From contig OY762926.1 in the NCBI GenBank assembly GCA_963666735.1, forward strand, positions 320,001 through 384,000: a stretch of DNA of 64,000 nt, given 5' to 3'. This stretch comes from Gemmatimonadota bacterium. Lineage in GTDB: Bacteria > Gemmatimonadota > Gemmatimonadetes > Palauibacterales > Palauibacteraceae. The notes below the pieces were generated by a model. It was given only the letters and a program-made list of their open reading frames with translations. It searched no databases and was not told the origin of the DNA. The position numbers and the translations under genes are program-made. This document shows positions 52,166 to 64,000 of the stretch, in pieces (the stretch's first letter is position 1; every line of letters starts with the position of its first letter).

Positions 52166-53824
52166 GTGTCGGATGCCCGATACGGGCCGTTCGTGAAATA
52201 CGATCTGCAGACGCTCCGCGGCGACCTCTTCGGAGGCGCCACGTCGGCGGTGGTCGCGCTCCCGGTGTCGCTCGCCTTCGGCGTCGCGTCGGGCCTCGGC
52301 GCCGTTGCCGGACTCTACGGCGCGATCGCCGTCGGCTTCTTCGCGGCCGTCTTCGGCGGCAACCGGTTCCAGATGTCCGGCCCCACCCCTTCCATGACCG
52401 TCGCCATGGCGGTCGTCGTGACCACGCATGCGTCCACGCTGAGCGAGGCCTTCACCGTGGTGGTGCTGGCGGGACTGATGCAGATCGCATTGGGTCTGTT
52501 GAAGACCGGCCGCTTCGTCGTCTACACACCGCACGCCGTCATCTCGGGGTTCATGTCCGGGATCGGCGTCATCGTCATGCTGATCCAGACGCTGCCGTTC
52601 CTTGGCGCCGCCCCCGCGGAGGGCGGTCCCATCGGCGCCATGCGGGCGCTGCCGGCGGCCGTGGCCAACATGAACGTGAGCGCGTTCGCCATCGGCGCGG
52701 TCACGCTCGCGGCCGGCATCCTCTGGCCTCGGCGGTGGTCACGCCTGCTGCCGGGTCCCCTTGTCGCCCTCCTCGTCGGAACGACGCTCGGCCTGTTCTG
52801 GCTGACCGACGTCCCCATCATCGGCGCCATCCCGACCGGCCTGCCGGAAATCCAGTTCGGTCTGCCATCCTTCGGTTTCTTGGCCCAGGCCTTTCATGCG
52901 GCACTCATCCTCGCCCTCCTCGGCTCGGTCGACAGCCTGCTTACGTCGCTCGTGGCCGACTCGCTGACCGGCACGCAGCACGACTCGAACCGCGAACTCG
53001 TCGGCCAGGGCATCGGCAATGTCGTCTCCGGCCTGTTCGGAGGGTTGCCGGGCGCGGGCGCGACGATGGGCACGGTCGTAAACATCCGCGCCGGCGGCCT
53101 CACGCGGATGTCCGGGGCTCTGCGCGCGATCTTCCTGCTGGGGGTTCTGCTGGGCCTGGGGCCGTTCCTGGAACCGATTCCGCACGCCGTGCTGGCCGGC
53201 ATCCTGATCAAGGTCGGGTGGGACATCATCGACTGGCCCCTTCTCGTCCGCATCCACCGCATCCGCCGCGACCAACTCTTCGTCATGGTGCTGACGCTCG
53301 GCCTGACCGTGTTCGTCGACCTCGTGACCGCCGTCGCGATCGGTCTCATCGTCGCGGGGATGGCTCACGCGCGGCAGTTGGAGACCCTCGAACTCGACAA
53401 CGTCCTCTCCGTACCGCTGCTGGATCGCACGTTCTTCGCCGGACTCGAGACCGCGGACGAGATGATGGCGGACGGAATGGGGGAATATTCGGCCAGGGTC
53501 GGCCTCGTGCAGCTTCGCGGCGCCTTCACGGTCGCCTCATCCCACAAGCTCGTTGGGGTCATCGGGAAGGACATCAGGGACCATGAGGTCGTCATTTTCG
53601 ATTTCTCCAGAGCGACGTACCTCGACGACAGCGCCGCGGTCCTCATCGGGCAGCTCCTGGCAGCGGCGGCGCAAGCGAATACCGACGTCGTCGTCGCGGA
53701 GGTTTCGGGCGCCGTAGCCAAGGTGTTCGAAGCCCTCGACATCCTGTCCGCCGTACCGGAGGACCAGGTCGTCGATACGACGGAAGAAGCGCGGGGCGTC
53801 GCCCTCGGCGTCCTGAATCGCTGA
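52166..53824 (+). CDS. SulP/SLC26-family anion transporter with STAS domain
   Basis: GDLFGG...ALPVSLAFGVASG, SGPT, NRELVGQG and DFSRATYLDDS motifs; start 52166 or 52193. Confidence 0.92.
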   Translation: MSDARYGPFVKYDLQTLRGDLFGGATSAVVALPVSLAFGVASGLGAVAGLYGAIAVGFFAAVFGGNRFQMSGPTPSMTVAMAVVVTTHASTLSEAFTVVVLAGLMQIALGLLKTGRFVVYTPHAVISGFMSGIGVIVMLIQTLPFLGAAPAEGGPIGAMRALPAAVANMNVSAFAIGAVTLAAGILWPRRWSRLLPGPLVALLVGTTLGLFWLTDVPIIGAIPTGLPEIQFGLPSFGFLAQAFHAALILALLGSVDSLLTSLVADSLTGTQHDSNRELVGQGIGNVVSGLFGGLPGAGATMGTVVNIRAGGLTRMSGALRAIFLLGVLLGLGPFLEPIPHAVLAGILIKVGWDIIDWPLLVRIHRIRRDQLFVMVLTLGLTVFVDLVTAVAIGLIVAGMAHARQLETLELDNVLSVPLLDRTFFAGLETADEMMADGMGEYSARVGLVQLRGAFTVASSHKLVGVIGKDIRDHEVVIFDFSRATYLDDSAAVLIGQLLAAAAQANTDVVVAEVSGAVAKVFEALDILSAVPEDQVVDTTEEARGVALGVLNR

Positions 53825-54066
53825 GCGAAGATCTCCCTGCGGGCAGGAGGCGGCTTGCGCAAGACATGTGGCGGGACTTCAACGTGGCTTGCGGGCGCAC
53901 TCGGCGGGCACACTCATCAGGGACATCCCGGCCGGTCTCCCCGGGGGGGCGGGGCACGCCGGTTTGTCTGGCGACATCCCTCGCTGCGTCGCTAGCTTCT
54001 CTGCCGTCGGGGACTCCGGGTGTTCCCTTACGCGATGAGAAACGCGACCAATCCGAAGGGGGATCC

Positions 54067-57000
54067 ATGGTGCCCAAGAAGCCCTGCCTGCCAACGCTCA
54101 GTGCCCCGGCCGCGTTACTTCTCGGACTGGTCATTTCGGGCTGCTCGGAGAGGGACCTAGACTCGCTGGGACCCGCACCTTCTCCCAGCAGTGGAGAGGT
54201 CTACCTCGACGGTTTCTCCCCCGGCCTGGAGTACCACGCCTTCGGCGGCTCCAAGGTCGATGCGCTGGACATCGATGAGACCGGCGGCCGCGCCGGTACC
54301 CCCAGCCTGAAGTTCACGATTCCGCTGCCGAACGATCCCGCCGGCGGCTACGCGGGCGGCGTATTCGTCGGCAGGCCGCCCCGCGATCTTTCCGTCTTCA
54401 CCGCGCTCACTTTCTGGACCCGGGCGAGGCAGGCGGCCACGCTCAACACCGTGGGCTTCGGCAACGACAACAGCGGCAATTCCAGATTCCCCGCCGAAGC
54501 GGGAGATGTGACCGTGTCGACGACGTGGAGCAAGGTCATCCTCCCCATCCCGGACCCCTCGAAACTGAGCGGCGAAGGCGGTCTGTTCTACCTCGCCGAG
54601 GGGGCGGAAAACAACCAGGGCAACGAGATCTGGTTCGATGAGGTCCGGTTCGAGGACATCCGGACCATCGCCAACCCGAGGCCGGCCATCGCCAGCGCGG
54701 ACATCGCGGGCGAACCCGGCGGCACGGCTCAGGTGATGGGAACGCAGATCACCTACGACGTGGCCGGCGAGGACCGGGTGATGAAGGCGAGCCCGGCCTA
54801 CTTCAGCTTCGGTTCCTCGGATCCGGGCGTGGTCACGGTCGACGCCGACGGAAAAATGACGTTCATCGGGCTGGGCACGGCGACCGTGACCGCCTCCCTC
54901 GGTTCGGTGCGGGCCGCCGGGACCGTCACGGTGAACGTGGGCGCCGCACCCGATGGCGGCCCGCCGGCTCCGGCGCGGCCCGCCGAGAATGTGATTTCGC
55001 TCTTCAGCGACGTGTACGACGACGTCACGGTGGACACCTGGTCGGCCGAGTGGGATCAGGCGGACTTCGAGGATGTGCAGCTTGCCGGCGACAACGCCAA
55101 GAAGTACTCGAACCTCGCGTTCGCCGGGATCGAGTTCACTTCGGCGCCGGTCGACGCTTCCGACATGAGCCATTTCCACTTCGATCTGTGGACTGGCGAT
55201 GAGACGGCGCCGCCGGCCGCGTTCAGGGTGAAACTCGTGGACTTCGGAGCCGACGGCTCGTTCGGCGGTGACGACGACAGCGAGCACGAGATCACGCTGA
55301 CCGCGGAATCGGGTCTCGCATCGCGAACATGGGTGAGTTTCGATGTGCCGTTGACGGACTTTGCGGGCTTGAGGGCCAGATCCAGCCTGGCGCAGCTCAT
55401 CATCTCGGGCGATCCGAACACGATCTATCTCGACAACATCTACTTCTGGGGCGAGGGCGCGCCTCCGCCCCCGCCTCCACCGCCGCCGGGCGCGATGGCG
55501 CCGGAGGAGCCGGCTCCGGCTCCCGAGCGTTCCGCGGATGACGTGATCTCCTTGTTCAGCGACGCCTACGAGGACGTGACGGTGGACACCTGGTCGGCGG
55601 AGTGGGACCAGGCGGATGTCGAGGACATCCAGGTGGCGGGCGACAACGTGAAGAAGTACTCGAACCTCGTGTTCGCGGGGATCGAGTTCACGTCGGCGCC
55701 GGTCGACGCCTCGGCGATGACGCACTTCCACCTGGATGTGTGGACGCCGGACCCGACGGCGGATCCGGCCGCCCTCAGGGTGAAGCTGGTCGACTTCGGC
55801 CCGAACGGGGTGCACGACGGCGGCGGAGACGACAGCGAACACGAGCTGTCGCTCACGGCAGCCTCGACGACGCCGTTGGCGACGGGGATGTGGCTGAGCT
55901 ACGACCTCGCGTTCGAGGAGATGTCGGGCCTCGCGGCGCGGGCGAGTCTCGCTCAGCTGATCATCTCGGGCGACCCGAACACGATCTTCGTCGACAACGT
56001 CTACTTCTGGGGCGAGAGCGCCCCGGCCCCGTCCGAGCCGCCGGTGGCGGCGCCGACGCCGAGCGTCGCGGCGGGCGACGTGATTTCGTTGTTCAGCGAC
56101 GCCTACGAGGACGTGACGGTGGACACCTGGTCGGCGGAGTGGGACCAGGCGGATGTCGAGGACATCCAGGTGGCGGGCGACAACGTGAAGAAGTACTCGA
56201 GCCTCGCGTTCGCGGGGATCGAGTTTACGTCGGCGCCGGTCGACGCCTCGGCGATGACGCACTTCCACCTGGACGTGTGGACGCCGGACCCGACGGCGGA
56301 TCCGGCCGCGTTCAGGGTGAAGCTGGTCGACTTCGGCCCGAACGGGGTGCACGACGGCGGCGGAGACGACAGCGAACACGAACTGTCGCTCACGGCAGCC
56401 TCGACGCCGCCGTTGGCGACGGGGATGTGGCTGAGCTACGACCTCGCGTTCGAGGAGATGTCGGGCCTCGCGGCGCGGGCGAGTCTGGCTCAGCTGATCA
56501 TCTCGGGCGACCCGAACACGATCTTCGTCGACAACGTCTACTTCTGGGGCGAGCGCGCCCCGGCCCCGTCCGAGCCGCCGGTGGCGGCGCCGACGCCGAG
56601 CGTCGCGGCGGGCGACGTGATTTCGTTGTTCAGCGACGCCTACGAGGACGTGGCTGTGGACACCTGGTCGGCGGATTGGGACCAGGGAGACGTCGCGGAT
56701 GTCGAGGTCGACGGGAATGCGGCGAAAATGTACTCGAACGTCGCCTTCGTGGGTGTGGAGTTCACATCGGCGCCGGTCGATGCCTCCGAGATGACCCACT
56801 TCCATATCGACCTCTGGACGGCGGACGAGACGGCCGATCCGGCGGCGTTCCGGGTCAAGCTGGTCGACTTCGGGGCCAACGGCGTGCATGACGGCGGGGG
56901 CGATGACAGCGAGCACGAGCTGTCGCTCACTGCGACCTCCGACCCGCCGCTGGCGACGGGGGTTTGGCTGAGCTACGACATCCCGCTGGCCGACTTCTCC

Positions 57001-57096
57001 GGTCTCGCCGAGACGGGCCATCTGGCGCAGCTGATCTTCTCGGGCGATCTGGGGGCCTTCTGGATCGACAACGTCTACTTCCGTCGCGACCAATGA
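54067..57096 (+). CDS. Large lipoprotein with an Ig-like domain and four repeated carbohydrate-binding-like domains
   Basis: ISGC lipobox; Ig-like SSDPGVVTVDADG; four VISLFSD...THFHxDxWT...VKLVDFG...DNxYF repeats with Pro-rich linkers; adjacent to a GH16 gene. Confidence 0.8.
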   Translation: MVPKKPCLPTLSAPAALLLGLVISGCSERDLDSLGPAPSPSSGEVYLDGFSPGLEYHAFGGSKVDALDIDETGGRAGTPSLKFTIPLPNDPAGGYAGGVFVGRPPRDLSVFTALTFWTRARQAATLNTVGFGNDNSGNSRFPAEAGDVTVSTTWSKVILPIPDPSKLSGEGGLFYLAEGAENNQGNEIWFDEVRFEDIRTIANPRPAIASADIAGEPGGTAQVMGTQITYDVAGEDRVMKASPAYFSFGSSDPGVVTVDADGKMTFIGLGTATVTASLGSVRAAGTVTVNVGAAPDGGPPAPARPAENVISLFSDVYDDVTVDTWSAEWDQADFEDVQLAGDNAKKYSNLAFAGIEFTSAPVDASDMSHFHFDLWTGDETAPPAAFRVKLVDFGADGSFGGDDDSEHEITLTAESGLASRTWVSFDVPLTDFAGLRARSSLAQLIISGDPNTIYLDNIYFWGEGAPPPPPPPPPGAMAPEEPAPAPERSADDVISLFSDAYEDVTVDTWSAEWDQADVEDIQVAGDNVKKYSNLVFAGIEFTSAPVDASAMTHFHLDVWTPDPTADPAALRVKLVDFGPNGVHDGGGDDSEHELSLTAASTTPLATGMWLSYDLAFEEMSGLAARASLAQLIISGDPNTIFVDNVYFWGESAPAPSEPPVAAPTPSVAAGDVISLFSDAYEDVTVDTWSAEWDQADVEDIQVAGDNVKKYSSLAFAGIEFTSAPVDASAMTHFHLDVWTPDPTADPAAFRVKLVDFGPNGVHDGGGDDSEHELSLTAASTPPLATGMWLSYDLAFEEMSGLAARASLAQLIISGDPNTIFVDNVYFWGERAPAPSEPPVAAPTPSVAAGDVISLFSDAYEDVAVDTWSADWDQGDVADVEVDGNAAKMYSNVAFVGVEFTSAPVDASEMTHFHIDLWTADETADPAAFRVKLVDFGANGVHDGGGDDSEHELSLTATSDPPLATGVWLSYDIPLADFSGLAETGHLAQLIFSGDLGAFWIDNVYFRRDQ
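54961..57084 (+). repeat. Four intragenic tandem repeats, 537-bp period for units 2-4
   Basis: Units 2 and 3 are nearly identical at DNA level; shadow ORFs recur at 55566, 56103 and 56640. Confidence 0.93.
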
Positions 57097-57947
57097 GCGG
57101 CGTGTGCGCGGTGACTCGGTTCGGATCCATCGCGAGAGCCTGTTCCGGAATGGGGCCGCTGGCGGCCCTGGTCGTCATCTCGGCGGGGTGCGGCGGCGAG
57201 GAGGAGCCCACGGCCCCGAGCCCGGCGCAGCTGATTTGGGAGGATGAATTCGATGGGCCGGCCGGCCAGTTGCCGGACCCGTCGCGCTGGGCGTTCGACA
57301 TCGGCACCGATTGGGGAAACCGGCAACTCGAGTTCGACACGGACCGTCCCGAAAACGTCTCCCTCGATGGGAACGGGAACCTGGCCATCACCGCTCGTCG
57401 CGAGGCTTTCAGCGGCAGTCAGTTCACGTCGGGCCGGATCAAGACCCAGCGGCTCTTCGAACAGGCCTATGGGCGTTTCGAGGCCCGCATCGACCTCCCC
57501 GCGGGCCGGGGCATCTGGCCCGCCTTCTGGCTGTTGGGCGCCGACATCGACACGGTCGGCTGGCCGGAGTGTGGCGAGATCGACGTGATGGAGTTCCGGG
57601 GGCAGGAACCGTCGGTCGTCCATGGCAGCCTGCACGGGCCGGGCTACTCGGCCGGCAACGCCGTGACGGCGCGCTACGCGCTGAACAACGACCGCTTCGA
57701 CACGGGCTTTCACACCTTCGCCGTCGAGTGGACCGAAGACCGGATCGAGTGGTTCGTGGACGGAGAGCGCTACCAGTCGGTCGGGCGTGACGACGTGCCG
57801 GGGCGCTGGGCCTACGACCACCCCTTCTTCATCATCCTGAATGTGGCGGTGGGCGGCGGCTTCGTCGGCCCGCCGGGCGAAGGCACGACCTTCCCGCAGA
57901 CGATGCTCGTCGACTGGGTGCGCGTCTACGGAATCGACGACTCGTGA
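57093..57947 (+). CDS. Glycoside hydrolase family 16 (laminarinase-type) lipoprotein
   Basis: GIWPAFW, WPECGEIDVME catalytic ExDxxE, LNVAVGG; SAGC lipobox. Confidence 0.95.
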   Translation: MSGVCAVTRFGSIARACSGMGPLAALVVISAGCGGEEEPTAPSPAQLIWEDEFDGPAGQLPDPSRWAFDIGTDWGNRQLEFDTDRPENVSLDGNGNLAITARREAFSGSQFTSGRIKTQRLFEQAYGRFEARIDLPAGRGIWPAFWLLGADIDTVGWPECGEIDVMEFRGQEPSVVHGSLHGPGYSAGNAVTARYALNNDRFDTGFHTFAVEWTEDRIEWFVDGERYQSVGRDDVPGRWAYDHPFFIILNVAVGGGFVGPPGEGTTFPQTMLVDWVRVYGIDDS

Positions 57948-60007
57948 CCCACCGCACGGCCCCCGGCGACCGGATCTCCTTTCCGCACAAGATCGTCTAC
58001 GGGGTCGGCGGATTCGTAAACAACCTCCTTGCGCAGGGAATCGGCGGGATGACCGTCGTGCTCACGCTGGCCCTCGGCATGGATTTCCGGCTCGTGGGCC
58101 TGCTCGGCATGCTGCCGAGGTTCTTTGACGCGATCACGGACCCGCTCGTCGGTTTCGTCTCCGACCGGACGCGCTCCCGGTGGGGTCGGCGCCGACCGTT
58201 CCTGTTCGTTGGAGCGATCCTCTCCGGCGTCATCTTCGCGCTCCTGTGGCAGATGCCCGCGCCGACCCAGTTTCGGATCAAGCTGGTCGATTATGGCGCC
58301 GACGGGGTGTACAGCGGCGATGTCACCGGCGAGCCGGTCAGCATATTCGAAGCCGTTGGAGAATCGCTGCGCGACATCGTGACCATCGAAGTCACGGACG
58401 ATGTCGAGGACGAGGTCGCAATTCTTCCCCCGACGCTCGTCACCGGTGGCTGGGTCGGAATCGACGTGCCGCTCTCCGATTTCGACGAGCTCACCACGCG
58501 CGGGCACCTGTCCCAGATCCTGATTTCGGGCGACCTCACCGAAGTGTACGTCGACAACGTCTATCTCTATCGGACGGACGACACGGCGAGAGTGACGGTC
58601 TCGGGCGAGGACCGGGAAGGCCGCACGGCGCCGGACGTGCCCGCGCCCGTCCCCGCGTACCCGGCCGACAATGTGATCTCGTTCTTCAGCAACGAGTATG
58701 ACGATGTGCAGGTGGACTTCTGGTCCACGGACTGGGACGAGGCCGACGTGAGGGACGCCGGGGCCGCCGGCGACGACGTCAAGCACTACACCAACCTGAG
58801 GTTCGCCGGCATCGACTTCGGCCGGCAGCCGGTGGACGCCGGCGCCATGACGCATATCCATATGGATATCTGGACGCCGGAGACCACCGGCGAGGGCCGC
58901 AGTCAGGCGTACTATTTTTGGTACTTTCTGGTCGGGTCGCTGATCTTTTTCCTTGCTTACACCATCTTCGCCACGCCCTGGGTGGCGCTGGGGTACGAAC
59001 TCACGCCCGATTTCCATGAGCGCACGCGCCTCATGGGCGTGCAGAACTTCGTCGGGAACATCGCCTTCGTGATCGCTCCGTGGTTCCTCGTCGTAATGAC
59101 GAATCCGGCGTGGTTCCGGAACCAGATGGCCGGGGCCAGATTCCTGGCGCTCGGGATCTGCGTGACCGTCATCGCACTCGGGGTGCTGCCGGCGCTCTTC
59201 CTCCGCGAGCGGATCCCCGCGACGGCGGGGAACGAAGAGCGGAGCAGTGGACGCGAAGCCGTGGGCGAGTTCTTCGGAGGCCTCTGGCAGACGGTTCGAA
59301 CCGGCCCCTTCCTTCTGCTCTGCGTCGCGACCTTCCTGATCTTCAACAGCTTCATCATGATCTCGGCATTCCAGTTCTGGGTGTTCGTGTACTACGTCTC
59401 CGGCGGCAGCGTGGCGGACGGAGCGTCGCTAGCCGGACTTGTGGGCACGCTCGGCATCGTCGCCGGATTCGCGGTGATCGCGATCGTGACCTGGCTGGGT
59501 ACGAAGATCGGTAAGCGGAACGCCTTCTTCATCTCCACCGGGATCTCGATGTTCGGCTATGCGCTGAAATGGTTCTGCTACCACCCCGAATATCCCATGC
59601 TCACCCTGCTTCCGGCTCCCTTTCTGGCCTTCGGGCTGGGCGGCCTGTTCACACTGATGGGATCGATGATCGCGGACGTGGTGGACCTCGATGAGCTGAA
59701 CACGGGCGAGCGGCGCGAGGGGATGTTCGGGTCGGTGTACTGGTGGGTCGTAAAGGTGGGACAGAGCATCGCGCTGGGAGCGGGAGGCTTCCTGCTCGCC
59801 TCGACGGGACTCGATATCGACCTCGGCGCGAACCAGGCCGCGCGGACCATCACTCTACTGCGGGCGTACGACGCCTTCATACCCTTGATCGCTTCCGCGA
59901 TCGCGATCTTCGCGATCTACAAGTACCCGGTCACGGAGAGTACCGCCCTCAAGGTGCGGGCGCAGCTGGAGGAGCGGAGAGGGGCTGGCGCGGCAGCCGC
60001 CACCTGA
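57944..60007 (+). CDS. MFS glycoside-pentoside-hexuronide transporter with an inserted soluble domain
   Basis: DAITDP, SDRTRSRWGRRRPF, ALGYELTPDFHERT and ADVVD...GERREG motifs; about 210-aa insert after TM3. Confidence 0.9.
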   Translation: MTHRTAPGDRISFPHKIVYGVGGFVNNLLAQGIGGMTVVLTLALGMDFRLVGLLGMLPRFFDAITDPLVGFVSDRTRSRWGRRRPFLFVGAILSGVIFALLWQMPAPTQFRIKLVDYGADGVYSGDVTGEPVSIFEAVGESLRDIVTIEVTDDVEDEVAILPPTLVTGGWVGIDVPLSDFDELTTRGHLSQILISGDLTEVYVDNVYLYRTDDTARVTVSGEDREGRTAPDVPAPVPAYPADNVISFFSNEYDDVQVDFWSTDWDEADVRDAGAAGDDVKHYTNLRFAGIDFGRQPVDAGAMTHIHMDIWTPETTGEGRSQAYYFWYFLVGSLIFFLAYTIFATPWVALGYELTPDFHERTRLMGVQNFVGNIAFVIAPWFLVVMTNPAWFRNQMAGARFLALGICVTVIALGVLPALFLRERIPATAGNEERSSGREAVGEFFGGLWQTVRTGPFLLLCVATFLIFNSFIMISAFQFWVFVYYVSGGSVADGASLAGLVGTLGIVAGFAVIAIVTWLGTKIGKRNAFFISTGISMFGYALKWFCYHPEYPMLTLLPAPFLAFGLGGLFTLMGSMIADVVDLDELNTGERREGMFGSVYWWVVKVGQSIALGAGGFLLASTGLDIDLGANQAARTITLLRAYDAFIPLIASAIAIFAIYKYPVTESTALKVRAQLEERRGAGAAAAT

Positions 60008-60036
60008 CCGAACCGCCACCTGGCCGTCAGGAGCCG

Positions 60037-61878
60037 TCAGGAGGCTTCCGCTCGCCCTGCCCCGGGGCGAGAGCCCATGGTGAGTCCATAGCCGACGGGG
60101 AACCGCGTCTCGTCCGGTTCGCCCCGGGCAACATCGTTCGCGGGCCATGTGTGGGCGAGGCGGCCCTGGAACTCGTGGTCGCCGAACAGCACTTCGGCGA
60201 CGCCGGCTCCCTCCGAGCCCGGCAGCCAGGCAGCCACGAACGCGTCCGCCGCCTCCAGTTCCTCCGTGACGACCAGCGGCCGCCCGGAAACGAGGACGGC
60301 CACCACCCGGATACCTCGGGCTCTCAGCGACCGAATGGTAGCGAGGTCCTCGGGGTGCAGCCGCGATAGCCGCAGGGTGTCGCCGTAGGGGCGAAGACGG
60401 GCGGGGCCCGGGGCGGGGGGCTGGACCTCGTCCGCGCCCGGAGCTTCCGGAGGAGGCGCAGTCCAATCTCGGATGTCGCCCGGACCCTCGGCGTAGGGTT
60501 CTTCTCCGATCACGACGATGGCCACTTCAAAGTGTCCGTCGTCCTCCGCCCCATCGTTCTCGCCCAACCGTTGCGCGCGCGGTGCGATCTGCCTGATGCC
60601 CTCCCAGACGGACGCGCCCCCCTCGATCCGGCCGTTCCCCCGCACGCCCTGCCATTCCACCGTGAAGCCCCCGCACAACGCCCCTCGATCATGCGCGTTG
60701 CGCCCCGCGACGAGTATCCGGGCGTCGCGGTGGAGCGGGAGGACACTCTCTTCATTCTTCAGCAAAACCAGCGACTTTCGTACGGCCTCTCTCGCCACCT
60801 CGCGGTGGCCCGCGGACCCGAAGCTGGCGTGGTTCGACCACTTTCGGGCGGCCGGACGCGGTTGGTCGAAGAGTCCGCAAGCCTCCTTTACGGCGAGGAT
60901 CCGCCCCGCCGCATCATCGATGCGCGCTTCGTCCACGGCACCCGCCTCCACCTGTCTCACGACTTCCGAGATGAACCGCGGCCATTGTTCCGGAACCATG
61001 AAGAGGTCGATCCCCGCGCTGACCGACCTGCGGACGGCCTCACCGAAATCGTCCGAGATCGCGAAGATGCCGTTCCAGTCCGACACGACGAACCCGGAGA
61101 AGCCCAGCTCGCCCTTGAGCACATCCGTGATGAGATACCGGTGCTCGTGACACAGGACCCCCTTCCAGCTGCTGAGCGAGACCATGACGGCGAGAGCGCC
61201 GACTTCCAGTGCCGGGACATACGGAGACAGGTGCGTTCTCCGCAGCTCCGCCTCCTCCGCCAGGGTCTGCCCCTGATCCACGCCGTCCATCGTGCCGCCG
61301 TCTCCGGCCCAGTGCTTCGGACAGGCGAGGACCCCGTCATCGCCGAAACCCGCCTGCAGACCCCGGACGATCCGCGGAGCGTATTCCGCGACGAGATCCG
61401 GCACTTCGGAGAAGCTCTCGTAGCTTCGGCCCCAGCGGCAGTCACCGGCGACGGCCAGCGTGGGCGCCAGATTCCAGTCCAGCCCGGTCGCCAGCACCTC
61501 CCGGGCGGTCACGCGGGCGATGCGTTCCACGAGTGCCGGGTCGTGAGCCGCGCCCAGGCCGATATTGTGTGGGAAGACGGTGGCGCCGAGGACATTGTTG
61601 TGCCCGTGGACGGCGTCCACCGCGTAGATGAGAGGGATGCCGGGCTGTCCGTCCCACCCCTCCGTCGAGGCGGCCCAGTAGGCGTCGTTCGTTGCGACCC
61701 AGTCCGCGGGGCGGTTGCGGCCGGGGAGTGAGCCCGCGCCGCTGAGGACCGAACCCACACCGAAGCGGCGGACCTGCTCAGGCGAGATGTGCAGCCTCTC
61801 GGCCTGCACCATCTGCGCGGCCTTGCGCGGAAGGCTGAGCCGCGAGAGAAGGCGCGCGACACGCGTCGATGGCTTCAC
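60037..61878 (-). CDS. Glycoside hydrolase family 3 beta-glucosidase
   Basis: DAVHGH, RWGRSYE, KHWAGDGGT, VSDW nucleophile, GEEPYAEG and AWLPGSEG motifs; start uncertain. Confidence 0.93.
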   Translation of the reverse strand: MKPSTRVARLLSRLSLPRKAAQMVQAERLHISPEQVRRFGVGSVLSGAGSLPGRNRPADWVATNDAYWAASTEGWDGQPGIPLIYAVDAVHGHNNVLGATVFPHNIGLGAAHDPALVERIARVTAREVLATGLDWNLAPTLAVAGDCRWGRSYESFSEVPDLVAEYAPRIVRGLQAGFGDDGVLACPKHWAGDGGTMDGVDQGQTLAEEAELRRTHLSPYVPALEVGALAVMVSLSSWKGVLCHEHRYLITDVLKGELGFSGFVVSDWNGIFAISDDFGEAVRRSVSAGIDLFMVPEQWPRFISEVVRQVEAGAVDEARIDDAAGRILAVKEACGLFDQPRPAARKWSNHASFGSAGHREVAREAVRKSLVLLKNEESVLPLHRDARILVAGRNAHDRGALCGGFTVEWQGVRGNGRIEGGASVWEGIRQIAPRAQRLGENDGAEDDGHFEVAIVVIGEEPYAEGPGDIRDWTAPPPEAPGADEVQPPAPGPARLRPYGDTLRLSRLHPEDLATIRSLRARGIRVVAVLVSGRPLVVTEELEAADAFVAAWLPGSEGAGVAEVLFGDHEFQGRLAHTWPANDVARGEPDETRFPVGYGLTMGSRPGAGRAEAS

Positions 61879-61919
61879 CTGCGGGGGTCGGAACGATGCC
61901 TGGCGGTTGGGCCGGCCAC

Positions 61920-64000
61920 TCACATGGCGATGTGGACGTACGTCCGGATCTCCCACTCGCTCCCGTCATCGCCCGAGCGTCCCGGCTCGCAGGTGGCGAA
62001 GCCGTTGGCGTCGACCGACGGGGCGGCGCAGTAACGGGGTGAATTCATGTCCAGCGACCGCCATCCGGCCCGGATTCCGAACCGTGTCCCCGGCATGTCG
62101 AACCAGCCCGGCCGGCCCAGGGAGTAGGAAAGGTCGGCCATCAACTGAAGCGGGAACGTGTGGTTGAAGTCGCGGTGATAGTCGTAGGGTCCCCAGTCGT
62201 TCACCCTCGCGAACGTTTCCAGCTTGAGCGGCCCGCTGATCGCCCGCAGTTGGATCCCATGCCGGCGGATGAGACGCTGGCTGTCTCCGTTCGGCTCGCC
62301 GGTCCCCGTGTAGATGTTGGCGATGAAGCCGGAACTGCCGGTCCGCTTGGAGACGAGGCGGGCGTTCACCTCCCACACGTCCCGCGCGGGCGGGGCGCCC
62401 GGGAAGGCGAAGATGGATCGTCCATCGGCCAGGATCCCGATCCCCGCGTCCTGCGTTGTGCCGAAGCTCTTGTAAGTGAATCCGACGGTGGCCGCGAAGG
62501 CCGCATCCTCGCGTATGTCGCTGTCCCACGAGTGCATCCACGTCGCGGGCGTGGGGTCGTAGGTGAGGAGGAACTCCAGCGCTCTCGTCTCCCGGTTCCA
62601 TCCGCGGACGGCGAACGGGTCGTCGACGACGTTGCGCGGACGCGCCGGCGCCGGGGCGTCCGCCGGAACCGGTCCCACGATCGGCCTCTGCCACAGGAAA
62701 TTGGGCGCGATCTGCCAGTTGCCCGCGTTCAGGGCCACGCCCGTGAGGACGTTGTACTGGTTTCCCATCCCGCTGTCGCGCAGCCACCAGCCGGTGAAGG
62801 TCTGCGTCGCGGTGGGCCCGCCCTCCGCGACCAGGCCCATCGCGGCCCCCTGGACGTACCAGTTCCAGCGGCCCCTGGTGAGAGTGAGCTTGGCCTTGGC
62901 GCCGAACGCATCCCTCGCCTCGATCTGGTCTCCGAGCACCTCGTAGCTTCCAGGGTCGCCGCGCACGATCTGGAACGCCTGCCCCTCCTTGGTGGATCCG
63001 GACCAGATGCCGCCCACCTCGATCACGGCGTCGCCGCGAGTGGCGGCAACGTGCACGGTCGCCTTGCGGGTCGGGGGCAGCGGCACGGCGAACGAACTCG
63101 CCACGGCCCCCTGTTCGGCGAGGTCCTCCTGATAGACGACCGTCGTCTGGAACGGCCCCACGTTCTTCGTCAGCTTGCCGAGGACCGCCGGATTCGCGCC
63201 CCACCAGAGTTCGGGACCGAACGCCACGGACAGACCGTCGAACAGTCTCTTGCCCTCGATCTCCACTCCCAGCGGCGCCATGCCGTTGTAGATGTCGATA
63301 TTCGGACCGTAGTTGGCCTCGCGGTACAGTCCGAAGAAGTCTCCCTCGTAGCCCCAGTGATAGTGGCCGGTGCGATAGAAGCCGTTGAGGCGGAACCATG
63401 AATCGTCCCACGACAGATTCGCCTGGTAGACCTTCAGCCGTTCGAGGTCGCCGAGAACGAACTGTTCGCCGTCGGCCTCCACGGTGCGGGGCCGCCCGCG
63501 GTTCTCGTAGAAGATCTCGTCGATGGGGTTGTTCGGGACCGCCCCGAGCACGTTGACGATGACTTCGCCCTCAATGCCTCCGGCCGGCCGCGCCGTGATG
63601 CCGCCGTAGAACGACTGCAGCTGGTCGAAGCCCCGGAACGATGGCCGCCCACGCGAGACGGTTGGGGCATCCTCCGGAGTGCTGATGACCGAACCGCCGG
63701 TGCTGAACGTCTCGAACTCCGCCCGCAGACTACTCACCTGGAAGCGATCGAGGATCGAGGAACTGAACGCCGCCCGGTCGCCGCGCGCCTGAAGCTCGGC
63801 CGTCTCGGGCATGATCGACGCAAAATGCCGCCCGATCGTCTCCATCGTCGTCCCCGGCCCGTAGGGATCGAGTTCGTAGACGTCGCGGAGGGCATAGTAC
63901 GCGGCGCGCGGGAACAGTTCGTACAGGCCCTCGTGGTCCGTCGGTCCCTTCGCGACGATACCCCACCACTCCTCGTTCATGTTGTTCTGGCCGGGCACGT
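61920..64000 (-). CDS. C-terminal part of a large glycosidase-like protein (probable GH2-type TIM barrel end plus beta-rich domain); 5' end lies outside the window
   Basis: NNMNEEWWGI...PRAAYYAL resembles the end of a clan GH-A barrel, followed by about 600 aa of amphipathic, aromatic beta-strands; context is a beta-glucan locus. Confidence 0.6.
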   Translation of the reverse strand, partial: VPGQNNMNEEWWGIVAKGPTDHEGLYELFPRAAYYALRDVYELDPYGPGTTMETIGRHFASIMPETAELQARGDRAAFSSSILDRFQVSSLRAEFETFSTGGSVISTPEDAPTVSRGRPSFRGFDQLQSFYGGITARPAGGIEGEVIVNVLGAVPNNPIDEIFYENRGRPRTVEADGEQFVLGDLERLKVYQANLSWDDSWFRLNGFYRTGHYHWGYEGDFFGLYREANYGPNIDIYNGMAPLGVEIEGKRLFDGLSVAFGPELWWGANPAVLGKLTKNVGPFQTTVVYQEDLAEQGAVASSFAVPLPPTRKATVHVAATRGDAVIEVGGIWSGSTKEGQAFQIVRGDPGSYEVLGDQIEARDAFGAKAKLTLTRGRWNWYVQGAAMGLVAEGGPTATQTFTGWWLRDSGMGNQYNVLTGVALNAGNWQIAPNFLWQRPIVGPVPADAPAPARPRNVVDDPFAVRGWNRETRALEFLLTYDPTPATWMHSWDSDIREDAAFAATVGFTYKSFGTTQDAGIGILADGRSIFAFPGAPPARDVWEVNARLVSKRTGSSGFIANIYTGTGEPNGDSQRLIRRHGIQLRAISGPLKLETFARVNDWGPYDYHRDFNHTFPLQLMADLSYSLGRPGWFDMPGTRFGIRAGWRSLDMNSPRYCAAPSVDANGFATCEPGRSGDDGSEWEIRTYVHIAM

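Follow-up and report, generated by a model that had tools for sequence, protein, structure and literature searches.

A circularly permuted CBM-like domain in loop 3–4 of a predicted GPH/MFS_2 sugar:cation symporter from Gemmatimonadota

Domain organization of the transporter

The window analyzed here is a 64,000-nucleotide stretch of a Gemmatimonadota genome (GenBank assembly GCA_963666735.1, contig OY762926.1, positions 320,001 to 384,000 of the forward strand). It harbors, between a glycoside hydrolase (GH) family 16 gene and a GH3 gene, the gene of a GPH/MFS_2 transporter of the major facilitator superfamily (MFS), into which a domain resembling a carbohydrate-binding module (CBM) is inserted between transmembrane helices (TM) 3 and 4. 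The gene is organized as follows, where pLDDT is the local confidence score of the structure prediction and profile columns are those of the repeat profile described below:

57944..60007, + strand: GPH/MFS_2 sugar:cation symporter gene with inserted domain, 687 residues in an open frame
57944..58258, + strand: residues 1–105, TM1–TM3 with the cytoplasmic N-terminus and cytoplasmic loop 2–3 (RSRWGRRRP), aligning with MelB 3–95
58259..58891, + strand: residues 106–316, net 211-residue insert in loop 3–4, predicted circularly permuted CBM-like β-sandwich
58259..58570, + strand: residues 106–209, C-terminal (second) half of the repeat domain, profile columns 78–158
58319..58396, + strand: residues 126–151 (26 residues), insert-specific expansion of the GGGDDSEHE loop, variable, pLDDT <50
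58571..58663, + strand: residues 210–240, linker from the original C-terminus to the original N-terminus
58664..58882, + strand: residues 241–313, N-terminal (first) half of the repeat domain, profile columns 1–76
58892..60004, + strand: residues 317–687, TM4–TM12 with the cytoplasmic C-terminus, from Pfam, the MelB alignment, the model and charge

The core is assigned to MFS_2 (Pfam PF13347) with an E-value of 2e-58 and 198.4 bits, above the curated threshold of 27. This match and those of the NCBIfam GPH, MelB and glucuronide-transporter models are each divided into two stretches, residues ~11–105 and ~320–680, which join at profile positions ~92–101; TIGR00792 (gph), whose match is split by the insert, reaches 156.3 bits against a cut-off of 231.35. 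Residues 11–102 align with MelB (4m64; MelB 3–95), and the alignment resumes from residue 329 (MelB 110 onward). The residues D62, D66, G81, R82, R83 and P85 are invariant across 144 sequences, and the MTHRTAP N-terminus is kept among homologues. The two TM2 aspartates D62/D66 and the basic motif of loop 2–3 find their counterparts in MelB in the stretches DAINDP and RSRWGK, and the TM2 aspartates of MelB have a role in cation binding. Sugar:cation symport is predicted from this family membership.

The full-length transporter was modeled with AlphaFold2 from 144 sequences (pLDDT 82.8, predicted TM-score (pTM) 0.78). Helices in the N-terminal part are formed by residues 13–36/38–44, 48–75 and 84–101, and TM helices are modeled before residue 105 and after residue 320. 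The core is matched by Foldseek to MFSD2A (8d2t, TM-score by target 0.83) and MelB (7l16, 0.71), with SV2A and OATP1B1 also among the matches.

The distance from the TM3-closing Pro residue to the TM4 motif ATPWVA is 237 residues here and 26 residues in the insert-free relatives P0271 and P0130, and the net insert is therefore 211 residues. A preliminary description of this locus, made from the sequence alone, had placed about 210 extra residues after TM3 (58259–58888), in good agreement with this spacing and with the split MFS_2/GPH and MelB matches. Contigs of the sequencing runs X1 and X5 cover 57900–59347 with 0 and 2 differences, respectively, and bridge both insert junctions, X1 being possibly the source sample of the window DNA. 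The stretch 58100–59100 recurs nearly identically (word share of at least 0.94) in six runs of two studies, and with a share of 0.70 in a third study.

The insert is a rotated copy of a tandem repeat

The insert is related to the repeats of a predicted lipoprotein encoded upstream, in which an N-terminal region and an Ig-like (Big_2-like) stretch precede four 160-residue CBM-like repeats, arranged in tandem and joined by Pro/Ala linkers:

54064..57096, + strand: CBM-repeat lipoprotein; open reading frame listed from 53866, likely start Met67, followed by the lipobox ISGC (by eye)
54982..55455, + strand: natural repeat R1
55534..56016, + strand: natural repeat R2
56071..56553, + strand: natural repeat R3, the one whose fold was predicted
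56608..57090, + strand: natural repeat R4

BLASTP of the insert against this 1076-residue open reading frame yields three alignments with E-values of 8e-47, 9e-47 and 8e-43 (37–43% identity), each of which starts midway through one repeat, crosses the Pro/Ala linker and ends midway through the next. A hidden Markov model (HMM) built from the four window repeats matches the transporter in the order of columns 77–97, 99–160 and then 1–77, and the same rotated order is found in all five other insert-bearing genomes fetched (six of six genes in all). To define the two halves, those of 27 homologues were aligned by hmmalign with a profile of 33 natural repeats. The C-terminal half occupies columns 78–158 and the N-terminal half columns 1–76, with an overlap of 0 and one column uncovered. 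The insert is thus exactly one domain-equivalent of the 160-residue repeat in rotated order, far beyond what chance would produce. The second-half-then-first-half order read in the preliminary description is borne out by all three comparisons.

Both ends of the insert fall in the WTPDPTADPAAFRV loop of the repeat. The sequence reads LWQMP / APTQFRIK ... DIWTPE / TGEGRSQAYYFWYF across the boundaries, compared with LWMMP-TGKSEM-FYFWYF in the insert-free orthologue, which suggests that the fragment entered directly behind the TM3-closing Pro. The linker (residues 210–240), which aligns collinearly with the Pro/Ala linker between repeats, differs in length between homologues. The repeat period is 179 residues, and the ~30 remaining residues of the insert are mainly the 26-residue expansion at 126–151. 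Tandem Repeats Finder reported nothing in 53800–60100, where the 537-nt period exceeds its 500-nt limit and the copies have diverged. Within the array, R2 and R3 are 97% identical (55534–56553), and R1 and R4 are each 73% identical to R3; the likeness of R2 and R3 points to a recent duplication inside the array or to gene conversion.

Predicted fold of the repeat and of the insert

The natural repeat R3 was modeled with AlphaFold2 from 33 sequences, giving nine strands with a pLDDT of 92.1 and a pTM of 0.88. Structural matches of this model in VIA, with the root mean square deviation (rmsd), include:

CBM8 (7t7z): Z 13.5, rmsd 2.9, 141 residues aligned
CBM11 (1v0a): Z 12.8, rmsd 3.1, 137 residues aligned
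CBM30 (2c24): Z 12.6, rmsd 3.3, 146 residues aligned
agarase GH50 module (5z6p): Z 11.7, rmsd 2.5, 128 residues aligned
'Novel laminarin-binding CBM X584' (8qx6): Z 11.1, rmsd 3.1, 131 residues aligned, 12% identity, rank 12

Several CBM families therefore outscore the laminarin-binding module 8qx6, and CBM29 is also among the structural matches. Consistent with the VIA result, the ten best Foldseek matches are CBM11, CBM30 and CBM8 (E-values of 7e-7 to 7e-6). As modeled, the natural repeat is a β-sandwich like those of solved CBMs.

In the model of the transporter, the strands of the insert correspond to repeat strands 5–9 followed by 1–4, with the same bridge pattern down to single-residue bridges. 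The C-terminal half contributes strands 110–116, 154–160, 171–176, 189–196 and 201–209, and the N-terminal half contributes strands 244–248, 266–274, 277–291 and 304–310. These strand blocks have pLDDT values of 72–94, and values below 50 occur only at residues 126–150. On the basis of secondary structure, pLDDT and the profile alignment, the insert is held to refold as one β-sandwich-type domain, and the reassembly of the two halves, for which the preliminary description had proposed an AlphaFold model, is obtained in this sense. A three-chain complex prediction (residues 1–105, 106–318 and 319–687) scored 0.00 in two runs without controls, which speaks neither way.

At the sequence level, no Pfam or NCBIfam family matches either the insert or the repeats. 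When the repeat was searched against PDB sequences (phmmer and profile, E-values up to 10), only chance-level matches were returned, 8qx6 not being among them, and Atlas gave only leads for the repeat domain, to CBM_11 and CBM_4_9.

The insert lies in an outward-facing loop and is conserved

The GPH family has an N-in topology, and the charge distribution of the window transporter follows it: Lys and Arg sum to 23 in the cytoplasmic segments, as delimited by us, versus 2 in the short outward loops, with 5 in loop 2–3. The whole loop 105–320, on the outward side, has a strongly acidic composition (43 Asp and Glu versus 13 Lys and Arg). Since loop 3–4 faces outward, as charge and MelB homology indicate and as the preliminary description had proposed, and since Gemmatimonadota are diderm, the inserted domain should lie in the periplasm. 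The connectors from the domain to TM3 and TM4 comprise only ~4 and ~8 residues, respectively.

A word-index search returned at least 120 clusters with 60–100% identity to the transporter, nearly all of which are 674–759 residues long and cover 95–100% of the query; three shorter clusters resemble fragments. The insert is present in all 117 aligned clusters (62–97% identical), with 20 invariant positions within it. Among 27 spread homologues, mean pairwise identity is 0.63–0.87 in the folded parts of the insert and 0.74–0.79 in the TM core, with lower values for the linker (0.37) and the extra loop (0.32). The ratio of non-synonymous to synonymous substitution rates (dN/dS, Nei–Gojobori) between the window and the related locus L041 is 0.134 for the folded parts, 0.071 for the core and 0.376 for linker plus loop, and the insert has values of 0.06–0.62 in 14 close pairs. 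From these patterns the insert is held to be maintained under purifying selection, and the earlier suggestion that it has diverged and yet is maintained stands. Sixty columns show at least 90% conservation in the natural repeats, and the inserts keep the same majority residue at 46 of these; the retained residues include W20, Y42, K83, D86, E100, E102, W118, Q139, D152 and N153.

Distribution and origin of the insert

In a species scan with one genome per species, of which the best 80 loci were assessed, a full-length match of ~2.0–2.25 kb is found at 33 loci. All 33 records are titled Gemmatimonadota (Longimicrobiales, Candidatus Palauibacter and similar). Matches of ~1.43 kb with 56–66% identity come from Gammaproteobacteria, Deltaproteobacteria, Gemmatimonas, Krumholzibacteria, Fibrobacteraceae and others. 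In a sample of the phylum, 8 of 151 genomes, including that of the window, match at E ≤1e-30; one of the other seven (G136) belongs to family f4, and the remaining six belong to family f6 and all carry the insert. These six, with 65–78% identity, are among 16 sampled genomes of their family, which is not that of the window, and no transporter match was found in the three sampled congeners or in the six sampled genomes of the window's own family. The distribution is patchy, and some Palauibacter records also carry the insert-bearing gene; loss and transfer between families are both possible.

G136 contains the same cluster (repeat lipoprotein, GH16, MFS, GH3 on the minus strand and GH-like on the minus strand) with a transporter that lacks the insert: residues 3–105 of the query abut residues 318–681, and the loop reads PTGKSEM. 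The two kinds of homologue that the preliminary description had suggested searching for are therefore both found, with the insert in at least 117 clusters and without it in G136, P0271 and P0130. The segment from the lipoprotein to GH3 is syntenic in all six other genomes fetched, and the GH-like protein is matched in five of these six loci.

In a tree of the 33 natural repeats (from seven genomes) and the 27 re-ordered inserts, a single branch of length 0.27 and low support (0.43) divides the two groups; the midpoint root falls within the insert clade, and we claim neither direction nor date. Because one branch splits all inserts from all repeats, the capture looks single and old, and the present upstream lipoprotein would be a relative of the donor rather than the donor, the insert being no recent copy of the current repeats. 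Of the earlier proposal of a capture across two tandem repeats, the permutation that spans a repeat junction holds, with the change that the tree indicates an ancient capture.

Four loci with matches of ~2.9 kb (L076, L097, L108 and L118) at first resembled carriers of larger inserts. For L076 and L108, translation reveals an insert-free transporter whose match tblastn had linked to that of an adjacent repeat protein read in a different frame. In L076 and in L108, the latter from a record titled Bacteroidota, insert-free relatives thus adjoin proteins that bear the same repeat. Since these transporters adjoin repeat proteins, the pairing of the repeat family with this transporter subfamily extends beyond Gemmatimonadota.

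Neighboring genes

Three further genes flank the lipoprotein and the transporter:

56964..57947, + strand: GH16 β-glucanase, laminarinase-type (Pfam PF00722, E-value 7e-27); true start probably downstream of the listed TTG
60037..61956, − strand: GH3 β-glucosidase (Pfam GH3 N- and C-terminal domains)
61920..64000, − strand: secreted GH-like protein, of which the C-terminal ~690 residues lie inside the window; the gene runs to ~65105 (L121:21-3206)

The NCBIfam β-glucanase models score below their cut-offs on GH16. The best NCBIfam match of GH3 is to exo-β-1,3/1,6-glucosidase, also below the cut-off, and no signal peptide is evident by eye. As seen within the window only, the GH-like open reading frame is an apparent 692-residue protein without a family. 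The whole protein has 1061 residues, with a signal peptide and a GH2_C-like TIM barrel (PF02836, E-value 2.7e-10), and ~690 of its residues have no Pfam or NCBIfam match; it may be a candidate glucanase with a novel C-terminal region, an assignment that we give with a question mark. The cluster of GH16, GH3 and the CBM-repeat lipoprotein points to the utilization of β-1,3-glucan of the laminarin type. This agrees with the GH16_3 laminarinases reported in marine Gemmatimonadota (PMC11316326).

A model for the inserted domain and its alternatives

We propose, with a probability of about 0.6, that the insert binds glycans in the periplasm while tethered to the symporter, and that it concentrates laminari-oligosaccharides there or presents them to the carrier. 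In this model, a fragment of one period, spanning from the loop after strand 4 in one repeat to the same loop in the next, would have been cut out of phase from a tandem CBM-like array in an ancestor of these Gemmatimonadota and inserted in frame directly behind the TM3-closing Pro. Because any one-period window of an array holds every element of the domain, such a fragment would fold as a circular permutant, in which the former inter-repeat linker bridges the old C- and N-termini. The new termini would be adjacent in a former surface loop, as needed for fitting into a short transporter loop, and the short connectors would mount the domain on the N-terminal six-helix bundle at its periplasmic side. 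There it may bind periplasmic laminari-oligosaccharides and either raise their local concentration at the outward-facing cavity or hand them over, and the imported oligosaccharides would then be cleaved by GH3. The secondary carrier would thereby gain a tethered receptor, like the fused substrate-binding domains of some ABC importers.

Several observations weigh against this model. The domain belongs to no characterized CBM family by sequence, and we infer glycan binding from the fold and the gene context. Insert-free orthologues occur in the same type of cluster, in G136 and in relatives from other phyla, which means that transport itself does not require the domain. Of the 60 conserved repeat columns, the inserts retain only 26 at a level of 90% or above; H101 of the E-H-E motif is present in just 44% and W24 in 56% of the 27 inserts, and E51 and T53 are consistently changed to D and G, respectively. 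Because many conserved repeat columns have shifted, some members of the family may have a changed ligand site or none at all.

A first alternative is a docking or scaffold role, in which the insert would no longer bind free sugar and would anchor the transporter to a periplasmic partner, such as the lipoprotein, a glycosidase or an envelope glycan, to couple hydrolysis with uptake. The folded parts are conserved although several near-invariant repeat residues have shifted, as such a role would allow. In the relative P0128, this loop contains a WD40 propeller, a fold that typically mediates protein interactions. The same transporter subfamily is fused to GH17 in Flavobacteriia, which the authors of that work read as hydrolysis–uptake coupling (PMC6246565). 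We nevertheless consider docking unlikely: most signature positions of the repeat, aromatic and acidic ones included, have the same majority residue in the inserts (46 of 60 columns), and no result points to a partner. The domain could instead act as a gate or sensor, a lid over the outward-facing cavity that regulates access or turnover in response to periplasmic glycan, or a signal of substrate availability. The connectors of ~4 and ~8 residues would fix it tightly on the N-bundle, and the whole-chain pTM of 0.78 suggests a defined rather than floppy position; however, neither the gene nor the cluster contains a regulatory partner or signaling domain, which makes this role quite improbable, and it is hard to separate from substrate hand-over without a structure.

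By comparison, a harmless in-frame insertion that merely persists as a tolerated passenger is very improbable. The occurrence of insert-free orthologues in the same cluster type would accord with it, whereas the folded parts evolve with dN/dS values of 0.06–0.62 in the 14 pairs (0.134 for the window versus L041) and the linker evolves faster, 20 positions are invariant over 117 homologues, and the insert is kept in all 33 Gemmatimonadota records with a full-length match. In addition, other lineages have independently fixed a different domain at this loop, in 82 clusters. An assembly artefact or a broken gene is refuted for practical purposes by the open frame, by the bridging of both junctions in contigs from runs of two studies, one run being possibly the source of the window, and by the same architecture in many independent assemblies.

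Comparison with known transporters and binding proteins

The window transporter shares the twelve-helix MFS core, the loop 2–3 motif and the TM2 aspartates with the MelB/GPH symporters (TC 2.A.2) and MFSD2A. The obvious difference occurs in loop 3–4, which has few residues in MelB and the insert-free orthologues and carries a 211-residue folded domain here. The ATP-binding cassette (ABC) importers GlnPQ and OpuA have substrate-binding domains fused to the membrane subunit and share the logic of a tethered extracytoplasmic binding domain that serves a transporter. They are, however, ATP-driven, with terminal fusions and classical substrate-binding protein (SBP) folds, whereas a CBM-type sandwich is placed in a loop of a secondary MFS carrier in the present case. 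Folded domains in outward loops also occur in the eukaryotic MFS proteins PepT1/2, SV2 and OATP, but these are located in loops 7–8 and 9–10, adopt different folds and are not glycan-binding. With regard to the permutation, the tandem-duplication model of circular permutation states that a one-period out-of-phase window yields a complete permuted domain. Here, in distinction from the textbook case, the array-type precursor, the permuted product and the uninterrupted target gene all survive in syntenic loci, and the permuted unit also served as a domain insertion.

A related architecture is that of the MFS–GH17 fusion FbGH17b of Formosa sp., in which an MFS transporter of a laminarin locus and a carbohydrate-active module form one polypeptide. 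Its authors proposed that hydrolysis is thereby coupled to uptake (Unfried et al. 2018, PMC6246565). The catalytic domain is appended C-terminally in FbGH17b, whereas a non-catalytic, permuted, binding-type domain lies within a periplasmic loop here. The upstream lipoprotein resembles Cf-SGBP of Christiangramia forsetii, which the preprint describes as two Ig-like modules plus four laminarin-binding CBM repeats (Zuhlke et al. 2023, 10.1101/2023.09.07.556657; PDB 8qx6). On that description both follow the same plan of a lipoprotein signal, an Ig-like stretch and four β-sandwich repeats in a laminarin-type locus; the upstream repeat and the Cf-SGBP CBM are alike in structure (Z 11.1), with no detectable sequence relation. 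No CBM in a transporter is described in the part of the preprint that was covered, and the term MFS is absent from its text. The main text of a 2026 review of bacterial glycoside transporters (PMC13543919) contains none of the terms fused, fusion, CBM, additional domain, GH17 and laminari. We found no description of a CBM or another folded domain within a bacterial GPH/MFS loop in the full-text literature, a coverage that excludes subscription journals. Fusions of transporters with carbohydrate modules being already known from MFS–GH17, the new feature is an accessory carbohydrate-type module inside a transporter loop.

To our knowledge, MFS secondary carriers are thought to meet their substrates unaided, and dedicated binding proteins are a hallmark of the ABC, tripartite ATP-independent periplasmic (TRAP) and tripartite tricarboxylate transporter (TTT) systems. 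If glycan binding holds, an MFS symporter with its own periplasmic binding domain would represent another route to high-affinity uptake. Such uptake would concern laminarin, which is among the largest marine carbon fluxes, in sponge- and coral-associated Gemmatimonadota that are not yet cultivable. For protein evolution, the locus offers an unusually complete natural example of array, out-of-phase capture, loop insertion and uninterrupted orthologue. For engineering, it offers a model from nature for building binding domains into the loops of transporters.

Other domains at the same loop in relatives

Relatives of the transporter carry other domains at loop 3–4. P0132 (654 residues) and P0131 (840 residues) contain one or two copies of another domain of ~170 residues, and P0128 (842 residues, a single metagenomic protein) contains the WD40 propeller. 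The P0132-type insert is conserved in 82 clusters (39–100% identity, 531–664 residues), the sources, where named, being Cloacimonadota and Marinimicrobia. Comparison of this insert with the Gemmatimonadota repeat by hhalign gives a probability of 0.04, and the two are treated as unrelated; Atlas relates the P0132-type insert to clusters of CBM30, Exop_C and CIA30 at 0.82–0.84, as a lead only. A different arrangement is found in P0153 (789 residues, 43% identical to the transporter), in which MFS_2 is followed by a C-terminal GH17; Pfam assigns no GH family to the window transporter, which therefore does not have this fusion architecture.

We tentatively raise the idea, doubtful as it is at present, that loop 3–4 in this GPH branch serves as a general socket for periplasmic receptor domains. 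If so, at least two unrelated domains, the permuted CBM and the ~170-residue domain, would have been fixed there independently, and these proteins would form an undescribed class of binding-domain-assisted MFS carriers, a secondary-transport counterpart of the SBP-dependent ABC and TRAP systems that permits high-affinity oligosaccharide scavenging without ATP. The Gemmatimonadota would then preserve an event of permutation by tandem duplication, with the array type, the product and the empty target site.

Gene coupling and transcription

The GTG start of the transporter and the TGA stop of GH16 overlap as GTGA (window 57944–57947), which suggests translational coupling in an operon spanning the lipoprotein to the transporter. 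A promoter scan of 53500–60300 gave 0 promoter-like sites and nine terminator-like sites, all within coding sequence, and is uninformative. In the RNA-library run X20 (a polyA 'transcriptomic' metagenome), two short contigs with 90–96% likeness fall inside the insert (58451–58590 and 58680–58839). They represent the sequence of a relative, for which DNA carry-over is possible, and give no more than a weak hint of transcription in a related strain; we do not count them as expression.

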